From: an uncultured archaeon
Lineage (GTDB): Archaea > Altiarchaeota > Altiarchaeia > IMC4 > SCGC-AAA252-I15
Assembly (NCBI GenBank): GCA_964587725.1
Contig: CAZPLO010000006.1
Coordinates: 1 to 20,537 of the forward strand
Direction of reading: 5' to 3'
DNA length: 20,537 nt
The notes beneath the pieces were generated by a model. It had not been told where the DNA came from. It saw nothing but the letters and a program-made list of their open reading frames with translations, and did not search any database. Shown in pieces: positions 12,827-20,537 of the stretch. Each line of letters begins with the position of its first letter. Positions within the stretch are counted from its first letter, which is position 1. Both the position numbers and the translations under genes were made by a program.

Positions 12827-14098
12827 TCAGCATTCCTCCAACGCACACATGACGTTCAATACCGCCTGATCTTCCAATGGTTTACCCACCACATGCAGGC
12901 CCGTGGGCACGCCATCCACCCTCCCAGCCGGGACGCTCCCCGCCGGCAGACCCGCCAGGTTCGCCGGCGTCGTGTAGATGTCGTAGGCGTACATGATACG
13001 GGGGTCCGTGATTTCACCCCCCAGTTTATGGGGGAGCTTCGGCACAACCGGCCCCACCAGCACGTCCACGTCCTTGAGGGCTGCCTGCATCTCCCGCCGA
13101 ATCAGCGAACGGGCCTGCAACGCCTTACGGTAGTATCTGCCGCTGTACTCCCTCTGGCTAATGTACTGGCCAAGAAGTATCCTCCGCAGCACCTCCTCGC
13201 CGCATGCCTCTTCGATGCGGTGGCCGTAGCGGCGGCCGTCGTATTTACGGGTGGCGCTGAAAAACTCCACATACACGTTCAAGTAATACGTGGGCAAAGC
13301 CAGCTCCAGGTTCGGCAGGCTGACGTCCACTATTTCAGCGCCGGCCGAAGCCAGGCTATCCACCGCGGAGTGAACCACCTTGCCGATGCCCTTGTCTGCT
13401 ATGAGTTCGTCGAACTCCGCTGCGTACCCGAGCTTCACACCAGATACGTCTGGGTTCAGGTTCTTCTCAAAAACCCCCGCCTCCACATCCAACGAGGTGG
13501 CGTCACGGCGGTCATGGCCCGATATCACGTCCAGCAGCCGGGCGCATGTTTGAACACTACGGGCCAGGGGCCCAATCTGATCCAGACTCATCGCCATATC
13601 CAGCAGACCATAGCGTGAAACGAGGCCGTACGTGGGCTTATAGCCTACGACGCCGCAGTGCGATGCGGGGTTGCGGATGCTGCCGCCGGTGTCCGAACCC
13701 AATGCGCAGTCCACGAATCCTGCGGCAACCGCGGCTGCGGAGCCGCTTGATGACCCGCCAGGTATCCTGCCATCTGCGAAAGGGTTTTGCGTAAGCCCAT
13801 AGTATGAGGTTTCGCCTGATGCGCCGCACGCGAACTCGTCCATGTTCGCCATACCCACTATCCTGCCCCCAGCGGCCTTCACCTTCTCCACTACCGCCGC
13901 ATCATACGGGGCTATGTAGTTTTCAAGGGTTTTGGAGGCTGCGGACGTGAGCATGCCGTCTACGCAGATGTTGGATTTCACAGCCAATGTGAGGCCTGAC
14001 AGGGGACCCCTTTTGGAAGACTTTATCCTGCCGTCCTCGTCCAACGCGATGAATGCGTTAACCTCCTCGTCTTTATCGGCGATTTCGCCCGAATCCAT
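12827..14098 (-). CDS. gatA: Asp-tRNA(Asn)/Glu-tRNA(Gln) amidotransferase subunit A (amidase signature family), ~423 aa
   Basis: LAVKSNI (catalytic Lys), NMDEFACG, PGGSSSGSAAAVAAG, LGSDTGGSIRNPASHCG, KPTYGLVSRYGL, YDGRRYG, EVLRRILLG, MYAYDIYTTPANLAGLPAGSVP. Start placed at ATG 14098 (alternative 14122). The track's extension to 14545 overlaps the opposite-strand gene. Confidence 0.9.
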   Translation of the reverse strand: MDSGEIADKDEEVNAFIALDEDGRIKSSKRGPLSGLTLAVKSNICVDGMLTSAASKTLENYIAPYDAAVVEKVKAAGGRIVGMANMDEFACGASGETSYYGLTQNPFADGRIPGGSSSGSAAAVAAGFVDCALGSDTGGSIRNPASHCGVVGYKPTYGLVSRYGLLDMAMSLDQIGPLARSVQTCARLLDVISGHDRRDATSLDVEAGVFEKNLNPDVSGVKLGYAAEFDELIADKGIGKVVHSAVDSLASAGAEIVDVSLPNLELALPTYYLNVYVEFFSATRKYDGRRYGHRIEEACGEEVLRRILLGQYISQREYSGRYYRKALQARSLIRREMQAALKDVDVLVGPVVPKLPHKLGGEITDPRIMYAYDIYTTPANLAGLPAGSVPAGRVDGVPTGLHVVGKPLEDQAVLNVMCALEEC

Positions 14099-14104
14099 CC
14101 TGGG

Positions 14105-14128
14105 TATTTTATTCGCGCGCATTAAATA
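14105..14128. promoter_or_regulatory. Overlapping divergent promoter formed by a 24-bp imperfect palindrome
   Basis: TATTTTATTCGCGCGCATTAAATA, with 10 of 12 pairs complementary. The left arm is 23-31 nt before ATG 14136 (+). The right arm, read on the minus strand as TATTTAAT, is 23-30 nt before ATG 14098 (-). Confidence 0.6.
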
Positions 14129-14135
14129 ATAACTG

Positions 14136-15563
14136 ATGAGGGGGCAGGTGTCTCTGGAGCTGCTTGTCGTATTGTCGGTTGTGTTGACTGTCATAGGATA
14201 CGTTACGTTGGTGGCGCAGCGGGAGTACGAGGGCTCCAGGATGACGTTGGACGCGGTGAAAGCCCGGACGGCGTTGAGGATACTGCGCGAAGCGGGCGAA
14301 GACGTGTACGCCCAGGGAGAAGGCGCCTCGAAGAGGGTGTTTGTTGACGTGCCGGACAGGATAGTGGACAGCTGGGTGTCCGGGACGTCGCTCCGGTACA
14401 GGATGAACCTGGGCGGCAGCATACAGGATGTCTTGGAGGTGGCTGGCGTCTGCGTCACAGGGTACCTGCCCGAAGGCGGAGGCGGGCAGTGGGTGCGCGT
14501 GCGGAGCAGCGGAGGCTGCGTCCGATACGGTGAAAGCCTGCTCACGGTCCAGCCGTCGAGGCTCAGCTTCAGAGTCTACGCAGGCGGCGTCGAAGAGAAG
14601 ATTCTCACGGTAACGAGTTACAGCAACGACTCCATGACCGTGTATGCTGAGCTGGAGTCGGAGATAGTGGATGTCCTGCCGGAGTCCGCGGTGCTGCCGC
14701 CTTATGGTTGGGTGAACTTCACAGTCACAGCCAACCCCCCAGCCGGCGAAGACCCGGGATACAGGTACGCGCGGCTGACCGTAAACGGCACCGAAACACA
14801 CTACGTGGACGTGTCAACGTATGTGCTGGCGAACACGTCTCTTAGCATCCACCCAGGGGAGTGGAACCCCACAATCGGGGCCGGCGAGCCGCGGAGCCAG
14901 CCGTGGGTGATATGCAACAACGGCGACGACACCGTATCAGATATCGTGTTGTCAGACAGTTTCGGGTGGGCCGCGTACCCCGGCGGAGACACGGTGTCTC
15001 TCAGGTCGGGGGAATGCGACACCGTCGAATCCATAGTCACCGTGCCGGCCGACACACCGTATGGAATCTACACGGGAGCGTTCACCGCCGAATCCGGCTC
15101 CCTGGCTGCGGTGGCGGCGGTCGAGATTACGGTGGTGGAGGGAGTCAACGGCACCGACATAGTCATACTGCCGAGGGAGTGGAATGTGACGTTGTGGCAG
15201 GGATACAGCGAAGTGAAGAAGTACACCATATGCAACCTCGGCGACACGTTGTTCGACGACGTCGCATTAACCACCTCCGGGTCCGCGGACTGGATGAACT
15301 TCAGCCTAGGCCGCGACATCGGACTGTTGGACGACGGAGAATGCGTCAACAACATGGGGAACCTGACGGTGCCGGAGTCGGAGGCTGCGGGGGTATACCC
15401 GGGCCAGATAACCGTTTCAGCCGGCAACCAGAGCTCATACTCGGATGTGACAGTGTACGTATACCGTCTATTGGAAGTGGACGTGAGCAACGTCAGCAGG
15501 TGCATGGGGCCGATGAAGGAGACAGTCAACGTAAACAGTGTCAGGAGGTGCGTGGGTGGCTAG
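14136..15563 (+). CDS. Type IV pilin-like protein (class III signal peptide) with three C-terminal Ig-like domains, 475 aa
   Basis: MRG/QVSLE-LLVVLSVVLTVIGYV (Q+1, E+5), then pilin-like EAGEDVYAQGEGASKRVFVDVP. Three ~100-aa units of the form L.I.P..W...ICN.GD...L..GEC...TVP...G.Y.G follow, the first more diverged. Confidence 0.85.
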   Translation: MRGQVSLELLVVLSVVLTVIGYVTLVAQREYEGSRMTLDAVKARTALRILREAGEDVYAQGEGASKRVFVDVPDRIVDSWVSGTSLRYRMNLGGSIQDVLEVAGVCVTGYLPEGGGGQWVRVRSSGGCVRYGESLLTVQPSRLSFRVYAGGVEEKILTVTSYSNDSMTVYAELESEIVDVLPESAVLPPYGWVNFTVTANPPAGEDPGYRYARLTVNGTETHYVDVSTYVLANTSLSIHPGEWNPTIGAGEPRSQPWVICNNGDDTVSDIVLSDSFGWAAYPGGDTVSLRSGECDTVESIVTVPADTPYGIYTGAFTAESGSLAAVAAVEITVVEGVNGTDIVILPREWNVTLWQGYSEVKKYTICNLGDTLFDDVALTTSGSADWMNFSLGRDIGLLDDGECVNNMGNLTVPESEAAGVYPGQITVSAGNQSSYSDVTVYVYRLLEVDVSNVSRCMGPMKETVNVNSVRRCVGG

Positions 15564-15565
15564 AA

Positions 15566-15572
15566 TTTATTA
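15566..15572 (+). promoter_or_regulatory. Possible internal TATA-like element
   Basis: TTTATTA lies 26-32 nt before ATG 15598, in the only sizeable gap (34 bp) of the cluster. Confidence 0.35.
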
Positions 15573-15597
15573 CGACGCAGGAAGAATACAGTATCGT

Positions 15598-17040
15598 ATG
15601 AGGTGGGCTTGCATGTTTTTGGCGCTGCTGGCCGCGTCGGCTGCAGCCCAGTGGGACAATACGGGATACGATTACAGGCGGCAGGTGACCTTCACCGAGC
15701 CGGCGGGGGTGGCGAGAACCAGCGACCACATCCGCTTCGCCGTCGGACTGCAGGAGTTCAGGAGCACCGGCGATATGGCATTGTACTGTGGAGGCAGCCA
15801 GATGCCGCTGGAAACACATGTGCTGTCGATGAGCGGGGGATGGGCCACTAGTATTCAGGCGGTGGCTGAACTAGACTTCACAGCGGACGAGGTGAAGGAC
15901 TGCTACGTATACTATGACGCGGACGGCGGCGGCACAATGGACTTGACTGTGGCAGGTTGGGATACCGCGGGCCAGACTGGGGTTTCAGGATGCAACGTGG
16001 TCGACATCACCCCATCTTCAACCGACTGCTACGCACACTATAACGCGTTGAACTACTACGGCAGCGACATAGTCATCTGCGGCGGCACAGACTACATCAA
16101 ACTGAACGGATGGTGCTACTTAAAGGCCCCCTCCACAACCAACGAGCAGTTCCGGGTGTGGAGCGACGACGGGTCCGTACTCTACATGGAAGACTCCGCC
16201 GTGGTAACAGACGATAGCTGCCACAGCCCCCGGTGGAGCAGCTACGGGTACCGGGACACCGACGCGGGAAGATTCTACGCCATGAAGGTGTATTACGCGG
16301 AGCAGGGGGGGCAGGCTAGGATACAGCCCGTATACGACGGAGACAACGTCTTCGACACCGAATGCTACGGGTTTTTGGGGGATGAGTGGACTGTTTCCGT
16401 GAGCGTCGGCTCCGAGGAGCTGCGGAACCAGCCGCCGGCGCAGACCGGCAGTTCAGTGAACCCGGACCCCGGCGGATGGTTTGAAGGCTTCACATACAGT
16501 GTGGACTTCACGGAACCCGACGGGGACTCGGTGGACTGCGTGTTCAGCGTCTACCGCCCGTCCACCGGGACGTGGGAGGGGATAGGCTCCGACAGCGGAA
16601 CAACAGGGTGTTCACTCACACACACGCCGTTCTCGTGTTCGGACGTTGGCGTCAGCCAGTGGAGCGTGGCATACGATGACGGAACACACGCGGGCACTTG
16701 GGGTCCGTGGAGCGGACCCACGCTGACGGGCGAATGCTGCGACAACCCCATAGACTTCGAGTACACACTCGACTACTCCGGCACCGCCGTGCAGGGGCGC
16801 CTGTACTTCGACAAAGGCAACTGGGACCCTGGAGACTACCACTGCTTCAGCATAGACGACACACCGGTGGCTGCGTTGAACAGTTACACAAGTGAAGGAG
16901 TAACTATAACCAATGCGACGCTGATGTCGCCGGGCGCCCACACATTGACGGTGACACTGTCGGCGTCGGACTCATGCCTGCCGGACTCGCTGAACCAGTG
17001 GAACGTGTCCAACATCAACTTCGAACTAACGTACTATTGA
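15598..17040 (+). CDS. Secreted protein with a DUF2341-like N-domain, a PA14-like domain and C-terminal beta-sandwich domains, ~480 aa
   Basis: Class I signal peptide MRWACMFLALLAASAAA/QW. W...YDYRRQVTF...CYVYYD resembles DUF2341. FRVWSDDGSVLYME...YAMKVYYAEQGGQARI matches the PA14 core. No C-terminal TM helix. Start chosen at 15598 rather than 15538. Confidence 0.75.
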   Translation: MRWACMFLALLAASAAAQWDNTGYDYRRQVTFTEPAGVARTSDHIRFAVGLQEFRSTGDMALYCGGSQMPLETHVLSMSGGWATSIQAVAELDFTADEVKDCYVYYDADGGGTMDLTVAGWDTAGQTGVSGCNVVDITPSSTDCYAHYNALNYYGSDIVICGGTDYIKLNGWCYLKAPSTTNEQFRVWSDDGSVLYMEDSAVVTDDSCHSPRWSSYGYRDTDAGRFYAMKVYYAEQGGQARIQPVYDGDNVFDTECYGFLGDEWTVSVSVGSEELRNQPPAQTGSSVNPDPGGWFEGFTYSVDFTEPDGDSVDCVFSVYRPSTGTWEGIGSDSGTTGCSLTHTPFSCSDVGVSQWSVAYDDGTHAGTWGPWSGPTLTGECCDNPIDFEYTLDYSGTAVQGRLYFDKGNWDPGDYHCFSIDDTPVAALNSYTSEGVTITNATLMSPGAHTLTVTLSASDSCLPDSLNQWNVSNINFELTYY

Positions 17041-17041
17041 A

Positions 17042-17428
17042 ATGAAAGGCCAGGTCACAGTAGACTTCATGATAGCAGTCGGCATGGCGCTGGTGTTCTT
17101 CATACTGCTGGTGAACGCAGCCTACGGCAACAGCCGGCACGCCGCTGAAATGGAGCTCCGCTACTCAGCATACGACGTCCTGGAGACGGTGGCGTACGGC
17201 GTCAACTCCATCGGGGTATGCGGTCGGGGGTGCAGCACCACCGTGAACCTGCCCGCTACACTGAGGGGCGGCATACCATACAGCCTCACCTTCTACCCCG
17301 GCAGTGTATTGTTGAACGCCAGCGGCAGATACTACGGCCGGCAGACGCTGACCGGCGCATCAGGGACCGTCGAATCCGGGACGGTGAGAATATACTACGA
17401 CGGAGGGGTGGTGGTGGAGGATGCGTAG
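17042..17428 (+). CDS. Small type IV pilin-like protein, 128 aa
   Basis: MKG/QVTVD-FMIAVGMALVFFILLV, then VAYGVNSIGVCGRGCSTTVNLP, which parallels the pilin body of the 14136 gene. Confidence 0.85.
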   Translation: MKGQVTVDFMIAVGMALVFFILLVNAAYGNSRHAAEMELRYSAYDVLETVAYGVNSIGVCGRGCSTTVNLPATLRGGIPYSLTFYPGSVLLNASGRYYGRQTLTGASGTVESGTVRIYYDGGVVVEDA

Positions 17429-17903
17429 GGGCCAGATATCCACCATAGACCTGGTGGTGGCATCGCTGATTATGGTGTTGATACTACTGTCGGTGATGGA
17501 TGTGTGGAATACCGTGGTCGTGCGTTTCAGCAGCTTCAGCGAGTCCATGACGCTGCGTAGGGAGGCGCTGCAGGCCGCGGAACTGCTGGTGAAGACACCC
17601 GGCTCGCCTGCCGGCTGGGATGATGGGACCGTGAACGCCACCGCAGTATCGTACATGGGTCTTGTGAACAGGGAGAACGTGTTGGACGAAGGCAAACTGG
17701 AGGCGCTGGCGGCGGCAGACTACGGTGACTTGAAGGCCATACTGGGTTTGAACCGGGACTTCAGACTGGAGATAATGGAGTTGGGTGGGGGGACACTGTA
17801 TGAAGCCGGGATTTCATTGGATGATGACGCGGTGTTGGTGGAGCGTTTCGCACTATACAACGACACGTTGACGGGGGTGAAACTCACCTTGTACGAAAGA
17901 TGA
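17421..17903 (+). CDS. Type IV pilin-like protein, 160 aa
   Basis: MRRG/QISTID-LVVASLIMVLILL and an LVKTPGSPAGW motif. 8-bp overlap with the previous gene and GGTGG/GGAGG upstream. Confidence 0.85.
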   Translation: MRRGQISTIDLVVASLIMVLILLSVMDVWNTVVVRFSSFSESMTLRREALQAAELLVKTPGSPAGWDDGTVNATAVSYMGLVNRENVLDEGKLEALAAADYGDLKAILGLNRDFRLEIMELGGGTLYEAGISLDDDAVLVERFALYNDTLTGVKLTLYER

Positions 17904-18280
17904 CAGGCATACTCACGCTGGACTCCATTACCGCGCTGTTGATTGCGACGGTGGTGTTGACGGCGGTGTTGGGGATGGTTTCGCAGCCGAAGGGCTCCGA
18001 CACCGAGTATTTGTATCAGGTGTCCCTCGACCTCCTCACCATACTGGAGGAGAACGGCGGCCTGCATGAGACTGTGGACGGCGGGGACAGCCGGCTGGAT
18101 GAGGTGGAGGCGCTGCTGCCGGAACGCTTCTGCTACCGCCTCGACGTAAGGGAGAGCGGCGTGCTGGCCTACACCGGCGACAGAGGATGCGTTGAATCAC
18201 AGGACTACAGCATAGGGAGGCGGGCGTTCGTTTCAGGGGGGAGAATGTATGTCGCGGAGATGAGGGTGTGGTTCAAGTGA
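17900..18280 (+). CDS. Pilin-like protein with an atypical class III-like N-terminus, 126 aa
   Basis: MTG/ILTLD-SITALLIATVVLTAVLG (acidic +5 and hydrophobic helix, but no basic residue before Gly), then SLDLLTILEENG. ATGA overlap. Confidence 0.7.
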   Translation: MTGILTLDSITALLIATVVLTAVLGMVSQPKGSDTEYLYQVSLDLLTILEENGGLHETVDGGDSRLDEVEALLPERFCYRLDVRESGVLAYTGDRGCVESQDYSIGRRAFVSGGRMYVAEMRVWFK

Positions 18281-19599
18281 AGAAGGGTTTCTTGTTTTCG
18301 GTGCTGACGTTCCTGCTAACATTGAGCATGCTCACCCTCGCAGCATACTACATTACCCTGCACCCGGTGTCCGGCGTTTACGCTGAGAAGACGGCCAACG
18401 TGTTCGGGGACGCCGCATCAGACTACAGGTCGCTGCTGTCCGTGGACGTTGAAATACTCGACGGCTCCGTCGTGTTCACCGACGTGTTCCCCTACGTGAA
18501 CGGCACACAGTACGTCAACGACTACGAAGAGTTCATTGAGGGCGAATACGCGGGGGTTCTGAACACCGACATAGAATTGGACGCGGGACAGCCGCACATG
18601 GTGGTGGAGCCCGCCGGCATAGTATACGGCTACAGCACATACAATAAGCCGTCCATCCGAATATATAATGCCTCCGGAGGCGCCGACGGAGTAGACGGCT
18701 ATGACGTATACGTCTCCGCGGATAAGCCGCTGTTGAACGTGACAGAAGACGAATCCGGCACCGGCTTAACGGTGAGGTTGAACGGGTCCTTCAGCAACGG
18801 CACATACTACGGCACACACACGGTCGCTCCAGACACACAGTCGGCGTTCACGTTCACATTAGACGACTCTAAATTGATAGTGGAGGTGGGAGCCAACGTA
18901 ATAGACGGCGTGGGACGGAACGGTTCACTGGTCATCAGGAGAACGGGAGACGTTATATCGGAGGTCACAGTTGCAGTCCTCTTCGACGACACCGCAGGTT
19001 ATGGGGTGCGGACGGACATGTACCTGAACGTTTCTGACGTCGTCAGCAAGGGGGACTGGCTGTGGCTCACCCCCCCGGTGACACCAGGTCAACAGCCGAC
19101 GACACCGCCGACATCCACCTCTTCAACGACGTCTACGGCGACATCAACCCCAACATCTACTGCATCTTCAACCTCTACTTCAACATCCACGTCAACGACC
19201 CCAGAGACGTGCGGCGCACACTGCACCGGATTAGGATACGGCGGAGGCACGTGCAGGCAGAACCCCAACCAATGCAGCAACAACGGGGAAACACACGAAA
19301 CAGGCGGCGACACATACTGTACTGCGGGGCCGCAGGCTGACACGTGCTGCTGCGCGCCCGGCTCCACTTCATCGTCAACAGCATCAGCGTCCACGGCATC
19401 CTCAGCCCCTTCAACGTCTCCCTCGACTTCAACGACCACGACAACCTCCTGCGAAGGATACTGCACGGGACAGGGCTACGGCGGCGGAACCTGCAGGCAG
19501 AACCCCAACCAATGCAGCAACAACGGGGAAACACACGAAACAGGCGGCGACACATACTGCACCGGCGGACCCAGCCAGGACACATGCTGCTGCGTGTGA
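18277..19599 (+). CDS. Pilin-like protein with a beta-rich body, Ser/Thr linkers and two C-terminal 8-Cys modules, ~440 aa
   Basis: GTG start overlaps the previous stop (GTGA). MKKG/FLFSV-LTFLLTLSMLTLAAYYI. Pro/Thr/Ser linker at about 19070-19209. Cys modules at 19210 and 19450. Confidence 0.8.
   Translation: MKKGFLFSVLTFLLTLSMLTLAAYYITLHPVSGVYAEKTANVFGDAASDYRSLLSVDVEILDGSVVFTDVFPYVNGTQYVNDYEEFIEGEYAGVLNTDIELDAGQPHMVVEPAGIVYGYSTYNKPSIRIYNASGGADGVDGYDVYVSADKPLLNVTEDESGTGLTVRLNGSFSNGTYYGTHTVAPDTQSAFTFTLDDSKLIVEVGANVIDGVGRNGSLVIRRTGDVISEVTVAVLFDDTAGYGVRTDMYLNVSDVVSKGDWLWLTPPVTPGQQPTTPPTSTSSTTSTATSTPTSTASSTSTSTSTSTTPETCGAHCTGLGYGGGTCRQNPNQCSNNGETHETGGDTYCTAGPQADTCCCAPGSTSSSTASASTASSAPSTSPSTSTTTTTSCEGYCTGQGYGGGTCRQNPNQCSNNGETHETGGDTYCTGGPSQDTCCCV
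19210..19593 (+). repeat. Tandem 48-aa Cys-rich modules (19210..19353 and 19450..19593), period 240 bp
   Basis: Both read C-x3-C-x9-C-x6-C-x14-C-x8-CCC. They share a 68-bp identical DNA core (19252..19319 = 19492..19559) and are separated by a 32-aa Ser/Thr linker. Confidence 0.93.
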
Positions 19600-19630: not shown

Positions 19631-19634
19631 TGTG

Positions 19635-20537
19635 ATGCTGTCCGAACGCAACCTCCTTAAGGTGCTGCCCGACAGGGAGGTGAAGGTGGGGGAGGTCGCA
19701 TCTGCGTTCAAGACCGGGAAAGACAGGATTCTCGAAGTCGCGGAGAGGCTTCGGCGAAAAGGCTGCGTCAGAATCCGGAAGCCACTGTTCCGCGAGCACA
19801 GGATACTGAAGACCGGCGAATACCCGGAAGGCGAATGCCGGGTCATAGCCGTGGTGAACCTGAAAGGCGGGGTAGGTAAGACGCTGACGACCGTGAACCT
19901 CGCCGCCGCGCTCGCGGCACGCGACAGAAAAGTGTTGGCTGTTGACCTGGACCCGCAGGCCAACGCCACATCCGCGGTGAAGGCCGGTTCAGACAAGACA
20001 ATCTACGATGTTCTGGTGGGCGGGGAACCCACCGCCTCCGCGGTGAAGGAAACATACGGGTTCCACATAATCCCGTCTGAAATAGATTTGGCGGGGGCGG
20101 AGGTGGAGCTGATGGGCTCCGACGGAGTATTCCGCCTCCGCGAGGCACTGGATGAAGTCAAAAGCAGATACGATTACGTGCTCGTAGACTGCCCGCCGTC
20201 ATTGAGTCTGCTGTCCATAAACGCCGTAGCCGCGGCCGACGAGCTGCTGGTTCCCGTGCAATGCGACGGATTCGCGTTGAACAGCCTCAATAAGCTCATG
20301 GAGGCGCTGAAGCTGCTGGAGGAAGTCAACCCGGAAGCGCACGTGGGAGGGATACTGTTGACCATGCAGGACGACACGGGGTTGGCGGCGGACGTGTCCC
20401 GGAAGGTGAGGCGGGAATACGGGGACAGAGTGTATGAGACGGTGGTGCCGCGGGACCCCGCAGTGGGGGAGTCCGCCGAAAAAGGCGTGCCTGTTACGCA
20501 GACGGGGTCGCCGGCCGCCAGGGCATACGTTAAAGTC
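19635..20537 (+). CDS. parA: ParA/Soj-family ATPase with an N-terminal winged-helix-like extension, 3'-truncated (not in the ORF track)
   Basis: Manual translation: MLSERNLLKVLPDREVKVGEVASAFKTGKDRILEVAERLRRKGCVRIRKPLFREHRILK...RVIAVVNLKGGVGKTLTTVNLAAALA..VLAVDLDPQANAT...IIPSEIDLAGAEVEL...YDYVLVDCPPSLSLLSINAVAAADELLVPVQCD. Deviant Walker A at 19863-19883. Open to the window end. Confidence 0.9.
   Translation, partial: MLSERNLLKVLPDREVKVGEVASAFKTGKDRILEVAERLRRKGCVRIRKPLFREHRILKTGEYPEGECRVIAVVNLKGGVGKTLTTVNLAAALAARDRKVLAVDLDPQANATSAVKAGSDKTIYDVLVGGEPTASAVKETYGFHIIPSEIDLAGAEVELMGSDGVFRLREALDEVKSRYDYVLVDCPPSLSLLSINAVAAADELLVPVQCDGFALNSLNKLMEALKLLEEVNPEAHVGGILLTMQDDTGLAADVSRKVRREYGDRVYETVVPRDPAVGESAEKGVPVTQTGSPAARAYVKV

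Follow-up and report, generated by a model that had tools for sequence, protein, structure and literature searches.

A probable pilus-displayed, defensin-like eight-cysteine module in an uncultured archaeon

The pilus locus and its last pilin-like gene

The window (the whole stretch of archaeal DNA that was analyzed, 20,537 nt) contains a run of five or six pilin-like genes (14136-19599), the last of which specifies a protein of 443 amino acid residues and is the only long frame in its region (Table 1). The earlier note had described this gene as the end of a pilin cluster, and its surroundings bear this out: a ParA-like gene follows and then, beyond the window on the same contig, a T2SSE ATPase (C6 20733-22925), two T2SSF genes, and a Class_IIIsignal pilin. 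Pfam analysis thus reveals all members of a Tad/Epd-like set, that is a ParA-like ATPase, T2SSE, two half-size T2SSF proteins, and a class III pilin, and we take the locus to be an archaeal pilus locus of the Tad/Epd type. Its gene order is conserved in a related genus (genome G040), where the three small pilin-like genes are syntenic and an orthologue of the 443-residue gene is found in the corresponding position. A prepilin peptidase (A24) is encoded elsewhere in the genome from which the window derives. The first, large pilin-like gene gives weak Pfam matches to Class_IIIsignal, NPCBM_assoc, and Cep192_D6.

Table 1. Positions of the genes and protein segments discussed in the text
Feature	Position in window	Strand	Basis or remarks
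First, large pilin-like gene, 475 aa	14136..15563	+	RGQ class III-type N-terminus, Ig-like domains
Secreted or anchored 500-aa protein	15538..17040	+	Weak PA14-like region (Pfam PA14 E 0.0026, below cut-off)
Three small pilin-like genes	17042-17428, 17421-17903, 17900-18280	+	KGQ/RRGQ-type N-termini, hydrophobic helices
Modular pilin-like protein gene, 443 aa	18268..19599	+	ORF list and translation
Putative class III (prepilin-type) signal	18268..18354	+	Short basic leader to KKG, then ~22 hydrophobic residues; motif and context
Tether 1, Ser/Thr/Pro-rich, aa 279-314	19102..19209	+	92% S+T+P
8-Cys module 1, aa 315-362	19210..19353	+	Translation; 69.8 bits against the A1 profile
Tether 2, Ser/Thr/Pro-rich, aa 363-394	19354..19449	+	81% S+T+P
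8-Cys module 2, aa 395-442	19450..19593	+	Followed by one Val and the stop codon
ParA/MinD-family ATPase gene	19632..20537, beyond window end	+	First of the assembly genes; Pfam AAA_31 E 4.9e-51, CbiA 2e-23

The 443-residue protein is laid out as a class III-like N-terminus, a β-rich body possessing seven N-x-S/T sequons, and two tethered eight-cysteine modules. Its N-terminal motif, [KR]-[KR]-G followed by a hydrophobic stretch, recurs in the proteins P0027 and P0037, in an ORF of locus L007, and in the G040 orthologue; the Class_IIIsignal model gave no match to the ORF in a Pfam scan. The public gene model (P0002, 435 aa) begins eight codons too late and as a result is missing the KKG leader motif. 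Orthologues with a single module each were recognized in P0027 (E 9.6e-61) and P0038 (E 3.6e-36), these E-values deriving from a small local database; a word-based homologue search using the N-terminal 290 residues returned the protein itself and nothing else. AlphaFold2 modeling of the N-terminal body (aa 1-281) from a four-row alignment resulted in an unusable model (pLDDT 37.8). The Ser/Thr/Pro-rich tethers are, from their composition, probably O-glycosylated.

Both modules are 48 residues in length and display exactly the spacing C-x3-C-x9-C-x6-C-x14-C-x8-CCC, so that the earlier description of two such modules on Ser/Thr tethers is confirmed by the translated ORF. They are 85% identical at the protein level, and a 122-nt direct repeat (86% identity, 240 nt spacing) runs across the two copies.

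The module family and its carriers

Among 1,835,955,588 cluster representatives, relatives of the module were found in 113 at E≤1e-3 and in 26 at E≤1e-10. With 113 such relatives the module must be regarded as a real family, far beyond chance. A total of 164 distinct modules was collected, 139 of which retain all eight cysteines. Alignment of 56 sequences reveals ten invariant columns (C1, C5, G13, C15, C22, G33, C37, C46, C47, and C48), and approximately three-quarters or more of 166 copies also keep R16, N18, N25, E27, G33, D34/N34, Y/F36, and D44. No Pfam-A or NCBIfam model reaches its cut-off on the module, and neither these collections nor the literature searched contain an already described cysteine-rich repeat of CPR or DPANN organisms which would account for it. 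The module appears to be an undescribed extracellular domain and is a candidate for a new Pfam/InterPro family. A word-based search with one module recovered the parent protein only, and a search of the ESM Atlas produced no usable match.

The carriers are for the most part proteins resembling type IV pilins, from Patescibacteria (CPR) and from Altiarchaeota/Aenigmarchaeota. A prepilin-type regular expression matches 60 of the 113 carriers, Pfam N_methyl is found in 19/58 and 21/56 of those scanned, and the names given in the source records include “pseudopilin PulG,” “prepilin-type...,” and “UPF0333.” At two CPR loci (L004 and L006) the carrier gene follows T2SSE, T2SSF, and an N_methyl pilin. 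The proposal that a disulfide-type module is borne by a pilin-like protein is thus upheld both by the type IV pilus locus in the window and by relatives located on other pilins of such operons. Seven related loci were gathered through the pattern PS[AQ]DTCCC, taken from eight closer rows, and consequently form a biased sample.

Carriers possess from one to four copies, and in 119 of 137 the last module lies no more than four residues from the C-terminus; in some proteins it is also internal or N-terminal. A C-terminal sorting or lipidation signal was considered and dropped as the main reading, the module being a confidently folded globule of disulfide type which also occurs at internal and N-terminal positions. 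Homologues of two other pilins of the window bear the module in other organisms. Those of the first, large gene (P0052, E 1.3e-67; P0107, 7.1e-65; P0007, 2.6e-50) all end in it, and a homologue of the small pilin gene at 17042 (P0047, E 1.4e-12) carries it as well, from which it follows that the module is independent of any particular carrier. The domains that accompany it are of binding type and include CBM_2, CBM_6, CBM96, Laminin_G_3, fn3, LVIVD and Kelch propellers, and cohesin. Non-pilin carriers also exist; these are anchored by a transmembrane segment or secreted through Sec, and include a GH5 cellulase, a cohesin protein, and a second carrier in the window's genome.

Fold, disulfides, and likeness to defensins

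AlphaFold2 modeling of module 2 from 56 sequences gave a confident structure (pLDDT 92.5) with helices at residues 2-8, 19-24, and 31-36, and strands at 14-16 and 45-47. The C-x3-C motif is situated on the first helix (C1 being present in 163 and C5 in 149 of 166 copies), and C46-C47-C48 form the last strand, where the middle residue of a C-x-C motif is also cysteine. The natural loss of cysteines is informative. C5 and C48 are absent together in 17 modules, with no single loss among 163, although these 17 cases resemble one or two clades, so that the Fisher p of 2e-23 overstates their independence. C1 and C46 are both missing from two modules on different types of carrier, and C1 is never lost without C46 (2/2). 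From this co-loss we surmise that C1 pairs with C46 and C5 with C48, which would imply the CxxxC/CxC staple of CS-αβ defensins.

Two parallel disulfides would then fasten the N-terminal helix (C1-x3-C5) to the final strand, with the strand bearing the invariant G13-x-C15 alongside, and an inserted stretch, conserved and some 28 residues long (N25-G-E27...G33-D34-x-Y36-C37), would be pinned by the remaining cysteines, for which the pairs C15-C37 and C22-C47 are proposed. An acidic module held together by four disulfides would result. The window's genome (92% complete) contains a gene for a DsbA-like Thioredoxin_4 protein; VKOR was not found in it.

Eight invariant cysteines in 48 residues, terminating in CCC, might be expected of a Zn, Cu, or Fe-S cluster serving, for example, redox reactions or metal capture on the filament, and in one carrier (P0079) another part of the sequence contains a MopE-like motif for Cu binding. 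Metal binding had been named in the earlier note as an outcome that would speak against a disulfide module. However, the cysteines disappear in specific pairs and leave the other six invariant, which is the behavior of independent disulfides rather than of a shared metal site, and it is upon this pairwise loss that the metal-cluster reading was rejected. The extracellular location, the confident metal-free AlphaFold2 model, and the DsbA-like oxidoreductase gene also count against it, and we regard it as very improbable.

Sequence searches returned a series of weak matches to defensins. In a PDB sequence search module 1 is matched best by two mutant defensins, 2e3e and 2ny9, over its residues 1-22 (E 0.85-0.99), and its best Pfam match is PF01097 (E 0.078; 13.3 bits, below the cut-off of 20.4). 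The similarity to insect defensins to which the earlier note had drawn attention is therefore visible, but not significant by itself. PF24552 (“Defensin-like”) gives weak, sub-threshold matches to 44 of 56 modules (6.9 bits for module 2, the cut-off being 27), P0105 scores 18.3 bits with PF00304 (cut-off 25.1), and the best E-values of other members in the defensin Pfam scan are 3.5e-4, 2.2e-4, and 1.3e-3. Sub-threshold matches thus extend to PF24552, PF00304, PF01097, and PF08119, and the cut-off of a defensin family (PF24552, PF00304, PF01097) is never reached. Cysteine-rich queries tend to draw cysteine-rich models in profile scans. The alignments to defensin PDB chains place C22 opposite the first cysteine of the defensin CxC, which conflicts with the co-loss pair C1-C46. 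Foldseek comparison of the model with the PDB yielded one match at E 9.2 and nothing usable. An NS1 protein, the top row of the PDB profile search (E 0.046), was set aside as unrelated.

The module resembles cis-defensins in its helical CxxxC, in the GxC of a strand, and in the CxC of the final strand (C-C-C in this case) and, as judged from co-loss, probably also in its two helix-to-strand disulfides. The suggestion of a CS-αβ-like fold gains indirect support from the CxxxC helix, the C-C-C strand, the co-lost cysteines, the invariant G13-x-C15, and the weak PF24552 matches. It fails with respect to the β-hairpin, since in the AlphaFold2 model the two strands do not form one and are kept apart by some 28 residues, which include short helices and a further pair of cysteines, where cis-defensins have a short hairpin. 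The module also differs in that no cysteine precedes C1, leaving the GxC cysteine without an N-terminal partner, and whereas cis-defensins are free and usually cationic peptides, the module is acidic and resides within surface proteins of approximately 150-900 residues. A second set of comparators is provided by the trans-defensins and β-defensin-like proteins, including platypus DLP-1 (1b8w), avian AvBD11 (6qes/6qeu), oyster big defensin (6qbk), and helianthamide (4x0n_B). The adjacent cysteines in the last strand of trans-defensins are present in the module as CC(C), and the trans-defensin connectivity C1-C5, C2-C4, C3-C6 would map to C1-C46, C15-C37, and C22-C47, in agreement with the co-loss pair C1-C46.

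Xanthusin-1 and actifensin are examples of bacterial defensins; the published bacterial set comes from Proteobacteria, Acidobacteria, and Actinobacteria, and transmembrane proteins and those longer than 130 aa were excluded from it (PMC11561630); the words archaea, pilin, and Patescibacteria are absent from its text.

To judge from sequence, the module appears to have a defensin-like disulfide core; homology to defensins is unproven. The likeness is rather probably a matter of convergence, the module being a lineage-specific small disulfide-rich fold whose resemblance arises from cysteine spacing. Against convergence it may be argued that the weak signals, several in number and independent, lead without exception to defensin-type families. 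Convergence is a statement about ancestry alone and does not conflict with a binding function. That the module is instead a genuine relative of the eukaryotic defensins, a prokaryotic pilus-borne form combining the cis staple with the trans adjacent cysteines in 48 residues, we consider improbable. Were it so, Archaea would gain their first defensin-type fold, and defensin scaffolds would have begun as acidic binding knobs on the filaments of ultra-small prokaryotes, been exchanged between Bacteria and Archaea, and later become free cationic killers. A prokaryotic, notably archaeal, and domain-embedded example is added to the question of how defensin-type disulfide scaffolds originated.

Display, function, and distribution

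CPR bacteria and many small archaea are believed to make contact chiefly through type IV pili, and to our knowledge the ligands of their pilus tips are largely unknown. In bacteria, adhesive modules grafted onto tip-located minor pilins are described by Raynaud et al. (10.1101/2021.01.27.428410), the modular type IV pilins PilB (vWA module) and PilC (lectin module) of Streptococcus sanguinis being examples, and many of the grafted modules have so far no database signature. The window protein shares with these the order of N-terminal anchor (in its case a putative pilin-type one), linker, and grafted module, as well as a gene position among the minor pilins of a type IV pilus locus, with the tip as the expected location. 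By comparison, that survey addressed bacteria through InterPro IPR012902, whereas our carrier is archaeal, with a putative class III-type leader and a Tad/Epd-like locus; a 48-residue four-disulfide knob is not named in the part of the text available. A further parallel is found in the minor pilins PilX1 and PilX2 of the CPR Saccharibacteria, which in PMC11623550 are proposed tip adhesins with additional lectin-like or propeller C-terminal domains; PilX2 is required for host binding and not for filament extrusion. Those domains are a jelly-roll and a β-propeller, unlike the 8-Cys module, and the words cysteine and disulfide are absent from the main text.

Tethering to the last minor-pilin-like protein encoded by the Tad/Epd-type operon would place the modules on the pilus and most likely at its tip. 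The module would be an add-on “effector” of modular type IV pilin-like proteins, present here in two copies on flexible, probably glycosylated tethers. Binding is its most likely function. Each copy may constitute a rigid, protease-resistant knob presenting a conserved acidic and aromatic loop, possibly stabilized by a cation, to one common ligand, for example a glycan, another cell, or some other surface. The earlier note had suggested recognition of a host or prey; the strong conservation of polar residues in bacteria and archaea alike favors a single common ligand, or a structural ion, over host receptors that vary. Taken as a whole, the explanation that this is a new pilus-displayed, four-disulfide, defensin-like acidic binding knob is one to which we give slightly better than even chances.

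The very strong conservation of the whole sequence between bacteria and archaea would also fit a purely structural role, in which the module caps and protects the pilin C-terminus or joins minor pilins in a priming or tip complex without contacting any external ligand. It could be viewed as an enlarged version of the disulfide loop that closes the C-terminus in type IV pilins, in keeping with its extreme C-terminal position in most carriers, and minor pilins do form tip or priming complexes (PMC11623550). Yet long flexible tethers and one to four tandem copies suit reach and avidity better than packing, and the module moves among different pilin carriers and is found on secreted proteins which are not pilins. 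A structural cap is, in our estimation, unlikely, if worth bearing in mind.

The charge of the module bears upon whether a binding knob or a killing device is being displayed. Module 1 has a net charge (K+R-D-E) of -3 and module 2 one of -4, confirming the earlier assessment of both as acidic, and the value is negative in 143 of 166 modules (mean -2.7) and positive in only 10. Membrane-active defensins are cationic. This weighs against a true defensin-type effector, that is a pilus-delivered antimicrobial or toxin which damages or permeabilizes the contacted cell, as do the covalent tethering of the module at the C-terminus and the kinds of domain found beside it, which are CBMs, lectin-like domains, and propellers and not toxins. 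Such an effector would be in line with the CS-αβ-type staple suggested by cysteine co-loss, with the weak matches to defensin and scorpion-toxin Pfam families and defensin PDB chains, and with the origin of many carriers, as given in record titles, from episymbiotic or parasitic lineages. Since the bacterial defensin xanthusin-1 is without antimicrobial activity (PMC11561630), the fold does not in any case predict killing. We deem the effector reading very unlikely, and membrane killing less likely than binding.

As a short, confidently folded, easily expressed, and sharply conserved unit, which recurs on various pilins of both Bacteria and Archaea, the presumed binding knob offers a handle on what these pili touch. 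Its phylogeny shows weak clustering and no clean split between the domains: in a FastTree analysis of 165 modules (48 columns) the archaeal-type carriers need 12 label changes against a mean of 15.2 after shuffling, and one shuffle in 200 required 12 or fewer. A tree of 48 columns is too poorly resolved to indicate a donor, and no direction of transfer is claimed. Within the window's phylum the module is present in 24 of the 61 genomes searched, as against five of 301 sampled Patescibacteria.

The module and its family

The module-bearing gene terminates a run of pilin-like genes (14136-19599), as the earlier note had claimed, and is followed by a gene for a ParA/MinD-type ATPase. Its 443-aa product carries two modules whose eight cysteines are spaced exactly as that note had described, and the Ser/Thr-rich tethers it reported are borne out by composition. 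A 122-nt repeat (86% identity) is common to both modules, and because the closest orthologue (P0027) possesses only one, the second copy is a recent internal duplication. The public version of the protein (P0002; 435 aa) starts eight codons downstream of 18268 and lacks the basic KKG leader. Since this leader is retained in the orthologues, the GTG at 18268, which overlaps the preceding gene by 13 nt, is more likely to be the true start.

Positions of the module-bearing gene, its parts, and other features discussed (window positions unless a contig is named)
Feature	Position	Strand	Basis or remark
Gene for 443-aa module-bearing protein	18268-19599	+	ORF translation
N-terminal leader: short, basic, ending in KKG, then ~22 hydrophobic residues	N-terminus of 18268-19599	+	Sequence
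Body, ~250 aa, seven N-x-S/T sequons	Between leader and tether 1	+	Sequence
Tether 1, 36 aa, 92% Ser/Thr/Pro	Between body and module 1	+	Composition
Module 1	19210-19353	+	Sequence
Tether 2, 32 aa, 81% Ser/Thr/Pro	Between modules 1 and 2	+	Composition
Module 2	19450-19593	+	Sequence; one Val and the stop follow
Giant open frame, at least 3,947 aa	2-11845	+	Runs off contig start
GatA-type amidase gene	12830-14545	-	TIGR00132, E 1.4e-155
Side features near amidase gene	12893-13618 / 14109-14801		Listed with 12830-14545 (-)
T2SSE ATPase	C6:20733-22925 (locus L011, 734-2926)		
Third module copy of the genome	C3:115556-116263 (locus L003, 1318-2025)		

A word-based homologue search with the module returned no protein besides the window protein itself. 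When 1.84 billion cluster representatives were searched in full with HMMER, 113 proteins matched at E≤1e-3, including 26 at ≤1e-10; a profile search added 24 more. The module set comprises 166 copies (164 distinct) drawn from 137 carriers, with the majority consensus CxxYCxxxGYxxGTCRxNxxxCxxNGETxExxGDxYCTGGxxADTCCC. In a 56-row alignment C1, C5, G13, C15, C22, G33, C37, C46, C47, and C48 are invariant, and R16, E27, and D44 are at least 90% conserved. In scans of the window protein and 114 carriers the module fell below the cut-off of every Pfam-A (24,736 models) and NCBIfam model; source databases name the carriers only as “pseudopilin PulG,” [quoted passage not shown] “UPF0333,” or “hypothetical.” Full-text literature searches gave no description of the module. 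It is a real family that has no entry in Pfam-A or NCBIfam. We regard it as a new domain family that is conserved, associated with pili, built on a defensin-like disulfide core, and shared by Archaea and CPR bacteria; the finding is interesting and testable, while function and any defensin kinship are what we infer from it.

Disulfide pairing and likeness to defensins

AlphaFold2 modeling on the 56-row alignment (pLDDT 92.5, pTM 0.67) predicts a helix at residues 2-8, a strand at 14-16, short helices at 19-24 and 31-36, and a strand at 45-47. Disulfide pairing was judged from natural cysteine variation across the 164 distinct modules, 139 of which keep all eight residues. C5 is missing in 17 modules (15 Ala, 2 Val) and C48 is missing in all 17, whereas single loss of either was seen in 0 of 163; C1 is missing in two modules of different carrier types, both of which have Ala at position 46. 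These paired losses (17/17 and 2/2) imply the putative pairings C1-C46 and C5-C48, that is, parallel bridges from the C-x3-C helix to the C-x-C strand. The 17 modules look closely related, and their C5/C48 losses would therefore go back to only a few separate events. Because C15, C22, C37, and C47 are invariable, co-loss carries no signal on their pairing. A metal cluster, the rival reading of the cysteines, is made unlikely by losses in specific pairs with the other six residues kept.

The defining motif of the CS-αβ (cis-) defensins, a two-bridge C-x3-C/C-x-C staple together with a G13-x-C15-type strand, would be present in the module. The best Pfam match of module 1 is arthropod defensin (E 0.078, below cut-off) and its best PDB matches are insect-defensin mutants (E ~0.9), and a PDB search with the family profile gave a plant defensin at E 0.19. 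In single-module searches, PF24552 “Defensin-like” was matched by 44 of the 56 (best E 3.5e-4; an uncalibrated raw count), Gamma-thionin by seven (best E 2.2e-4), the arthropod defensin family by four (best E 1.3e-3), a scorpion toxin family by two, and each of a further seven listed families by one; wherever scores were printed, they lie under the curated cut-offs. Foldseek, among the checks against defensin folds which the earlier note had proposed, yielded no meaningful PDB match for the module model.

Mapped onto the module, beta-defensin (trans) connectivity would give C1-C46, C15-C37, and C22-C47, leaving C5-C48 as an extra staple. It agrees with C1-C46, the sole one of its pairs open to co-loss. 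Sequence-based and structure-based placements of C22 disagree. The picture is of a defensin-like scaffold combining a cis-type staple, trans-type adjacent cysteines, and a large conserved insert. Unlike defensins, the module is under the family cut-offs, has no short hairpin, and has no free cationic peptide form. Because several membership features are thus absent and the C22 mappings disagree, it is filed as working like a defensin-type scaffold and not classed as a defensin; convergence is more likely than homology. The interpretation in the earlier note is partly supported: the claimed likeness stands for the inferred CxxxC/CxC staple and the GxC strand, but not for family scores or a short hairpin.

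Carriers, pilus operons, and distribution

The last module ends within four residues of the C-terminus in 119 of 137 carriers; 112 have one copy, 22 two, two three, and one four. A regular expression for the prepilin-type motif (G|F-T/S-L-I-E and variants) within the first 70 residues matches 60/113 carriers, and one for archaeal class III peptides matches nine more (by eye, approximately six convincing, two bacterial-looking, and one false). The remaining 44 match neither, several being visibly truncated at the N-terminus. Pfam N_methyl was found in 19/58 carriers at E≤1e-3 and in 21/56 at E≤5e-3. Partner domains include fn3, LVIVD and Kelch propellers, Laminin_G_3, CBM_2, CBM_6, CBM96, GH5 cellulase, cohesin, DUF5667, and DUF4215. 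From the motif share and these varied partners, the module is an extracellular domain that is mobile and strongly, though not exclusively, prefers pilins.

Past the window, the same contig encodes a T2SSE ATPase, two T2SSF proteins, and a 153-aa protein in which Pfam recognizes a class III signal peptide (E 2.4e-5); a KaiC-like ATPase is encoded next, on the opposite strand to the pilus genes. This set (ParA-like, T2SSE, two T2SSF, class III protein) we take to be typical of Tad/Epd-type archaeal pili. The rest of the genome, which is 92% complete, holds six T2SSE genes, one A24 prepilin peptidase, and one DsbA-like Thioredoxin_4 gene; VKOR was not found in it. The whole operon is syntenic in G040, a genome from a different genus within the same family, where the orthologue has one module. 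On CPR contigs the carrier directly follows T2SSE (PilB-like), T2SSF (PilC-like), and a 154-aa N_methyl pilin, which is the position of minor pilins; further pilin genes follow, the next being module-bearing in two loci. The 475-aa gene at 14136 has module-bearing homologues elsewhere (P0052, E 1.3e-67; P0107; P0007), as does the 128-aa gene at 17042 (P0047), and the module therefore moves from one pilin subunit to another within operons of this kind. Such movement is as expected for an effector that needs only display on the filament.

Several neighboring features deserve mention. At its N-terminus the T2SSE ATPase is extended by ~400 aa that give weak helix-turn-helix matches of MarR-like and DeoR-like type, and its G040 orthologue has a similarly weak Fe_dep_repress match; a DNA-binding-like domain on a pilus assembly ATPase is unusual. 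The giant open frame, probably a giant surface protein adjoining the operon, matches Pfam only at one Ig-like domain, Big_7 (aa 3275-3315 in the 3,914-aa form; E 9e-12), and parts of it are at ~48-50% G+C, against 55-60% elsewhere, with strong AT skew. The amidase gene is flanked by a DUF1003 gene and the pilin cluster; since, as listed, it reaches ~400 nt into the first pilin gene at its 5′ end, one of the two probably starts further in than listed.

Seven module loci are assigned by contig record to a Patescibacteria SAG, Paceibacterota, WWE3, Saccharibacteria, Altiarchaeota, Aenigmarchaeota, and a “Gammaproteobacteria” MAG. The last (L008) encodes a 642-aa carrier in a CPR-like pilin operon with several GFTLIE-type small pilins, and its label may reflect mis-binning. 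At E≤1e-5 the module occurs in 24/61 genomes and 11/31 genera of the window's phylum, all within one order, and in 0/12 genomes of the two families outside it; in an even sample of Patescibacteria it occurs in 5/301 (center genome counted). In a FastTree phylogeny of the 48 columns archaeal-type and bacterial-type carriers are interspersed (12 label changes versus a shuffled mean of 15.2), which points to a module that has evidently crossed between these two domains of life. Besides the two copies in the window protein, the genome of the window has a third. This one, N-terminal and directly after a Sec-type signal peptide, differs slightly in spacing (loops of x13 and x10) and shares 53% identity with module 2; its Cys-rich carrier, in which no Pfam family was found, is cut off by the contig end.

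Candidate role

Modules 1 and 2 are net acidic (-3 and -4, counted from the protein sequence), as had been noted, and so are 143 of the 166 copies (mean charge -2.7); this charge makes the rival reading, a killing effector, less likely. The module is tethered, terminal, sometimes tandem, and found alongside lectin-like, CBM, and propeller domains; the terminal position would also suit a purely structural cap, a less likely rival. Its tethered, terminal placement fits the concept of modular pilins, in which a minor pilin at the tip carries a grafted adhesive module (10.1101/2021.01.27.428410), and the C-terminal adhesin domains described for Saccharibacteria PilX proteins (PMC11623550). Since acidity, tethering, position, and partner domains fit these cases, a rigid binding knob is, by analogy, the favored candidate role. 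Displayed on the filament, such a knob would present its conserved acidic/aromatic loop for binding. The N25-G-E27...G33-D34-x-Y36 loop, together with D44 and R16, probably forms the functional surface; a bound cation is conjectured from the example of other small acidic modules rich in disulfides. The same residues are kept in bacteria and archaea, and for this reason a common ligand or structural ion is more plausible than lineage-specific host receptors.

Some bacterial-type pilins (P0115, 502 aa; P0003/P0006) carry three or four modules in tandem, where very short linkers (5-10 residues) take the place of the long Ser/Thr tethers. Modules of this group are Arg/Lys-rich and may account for the few that are net positive.
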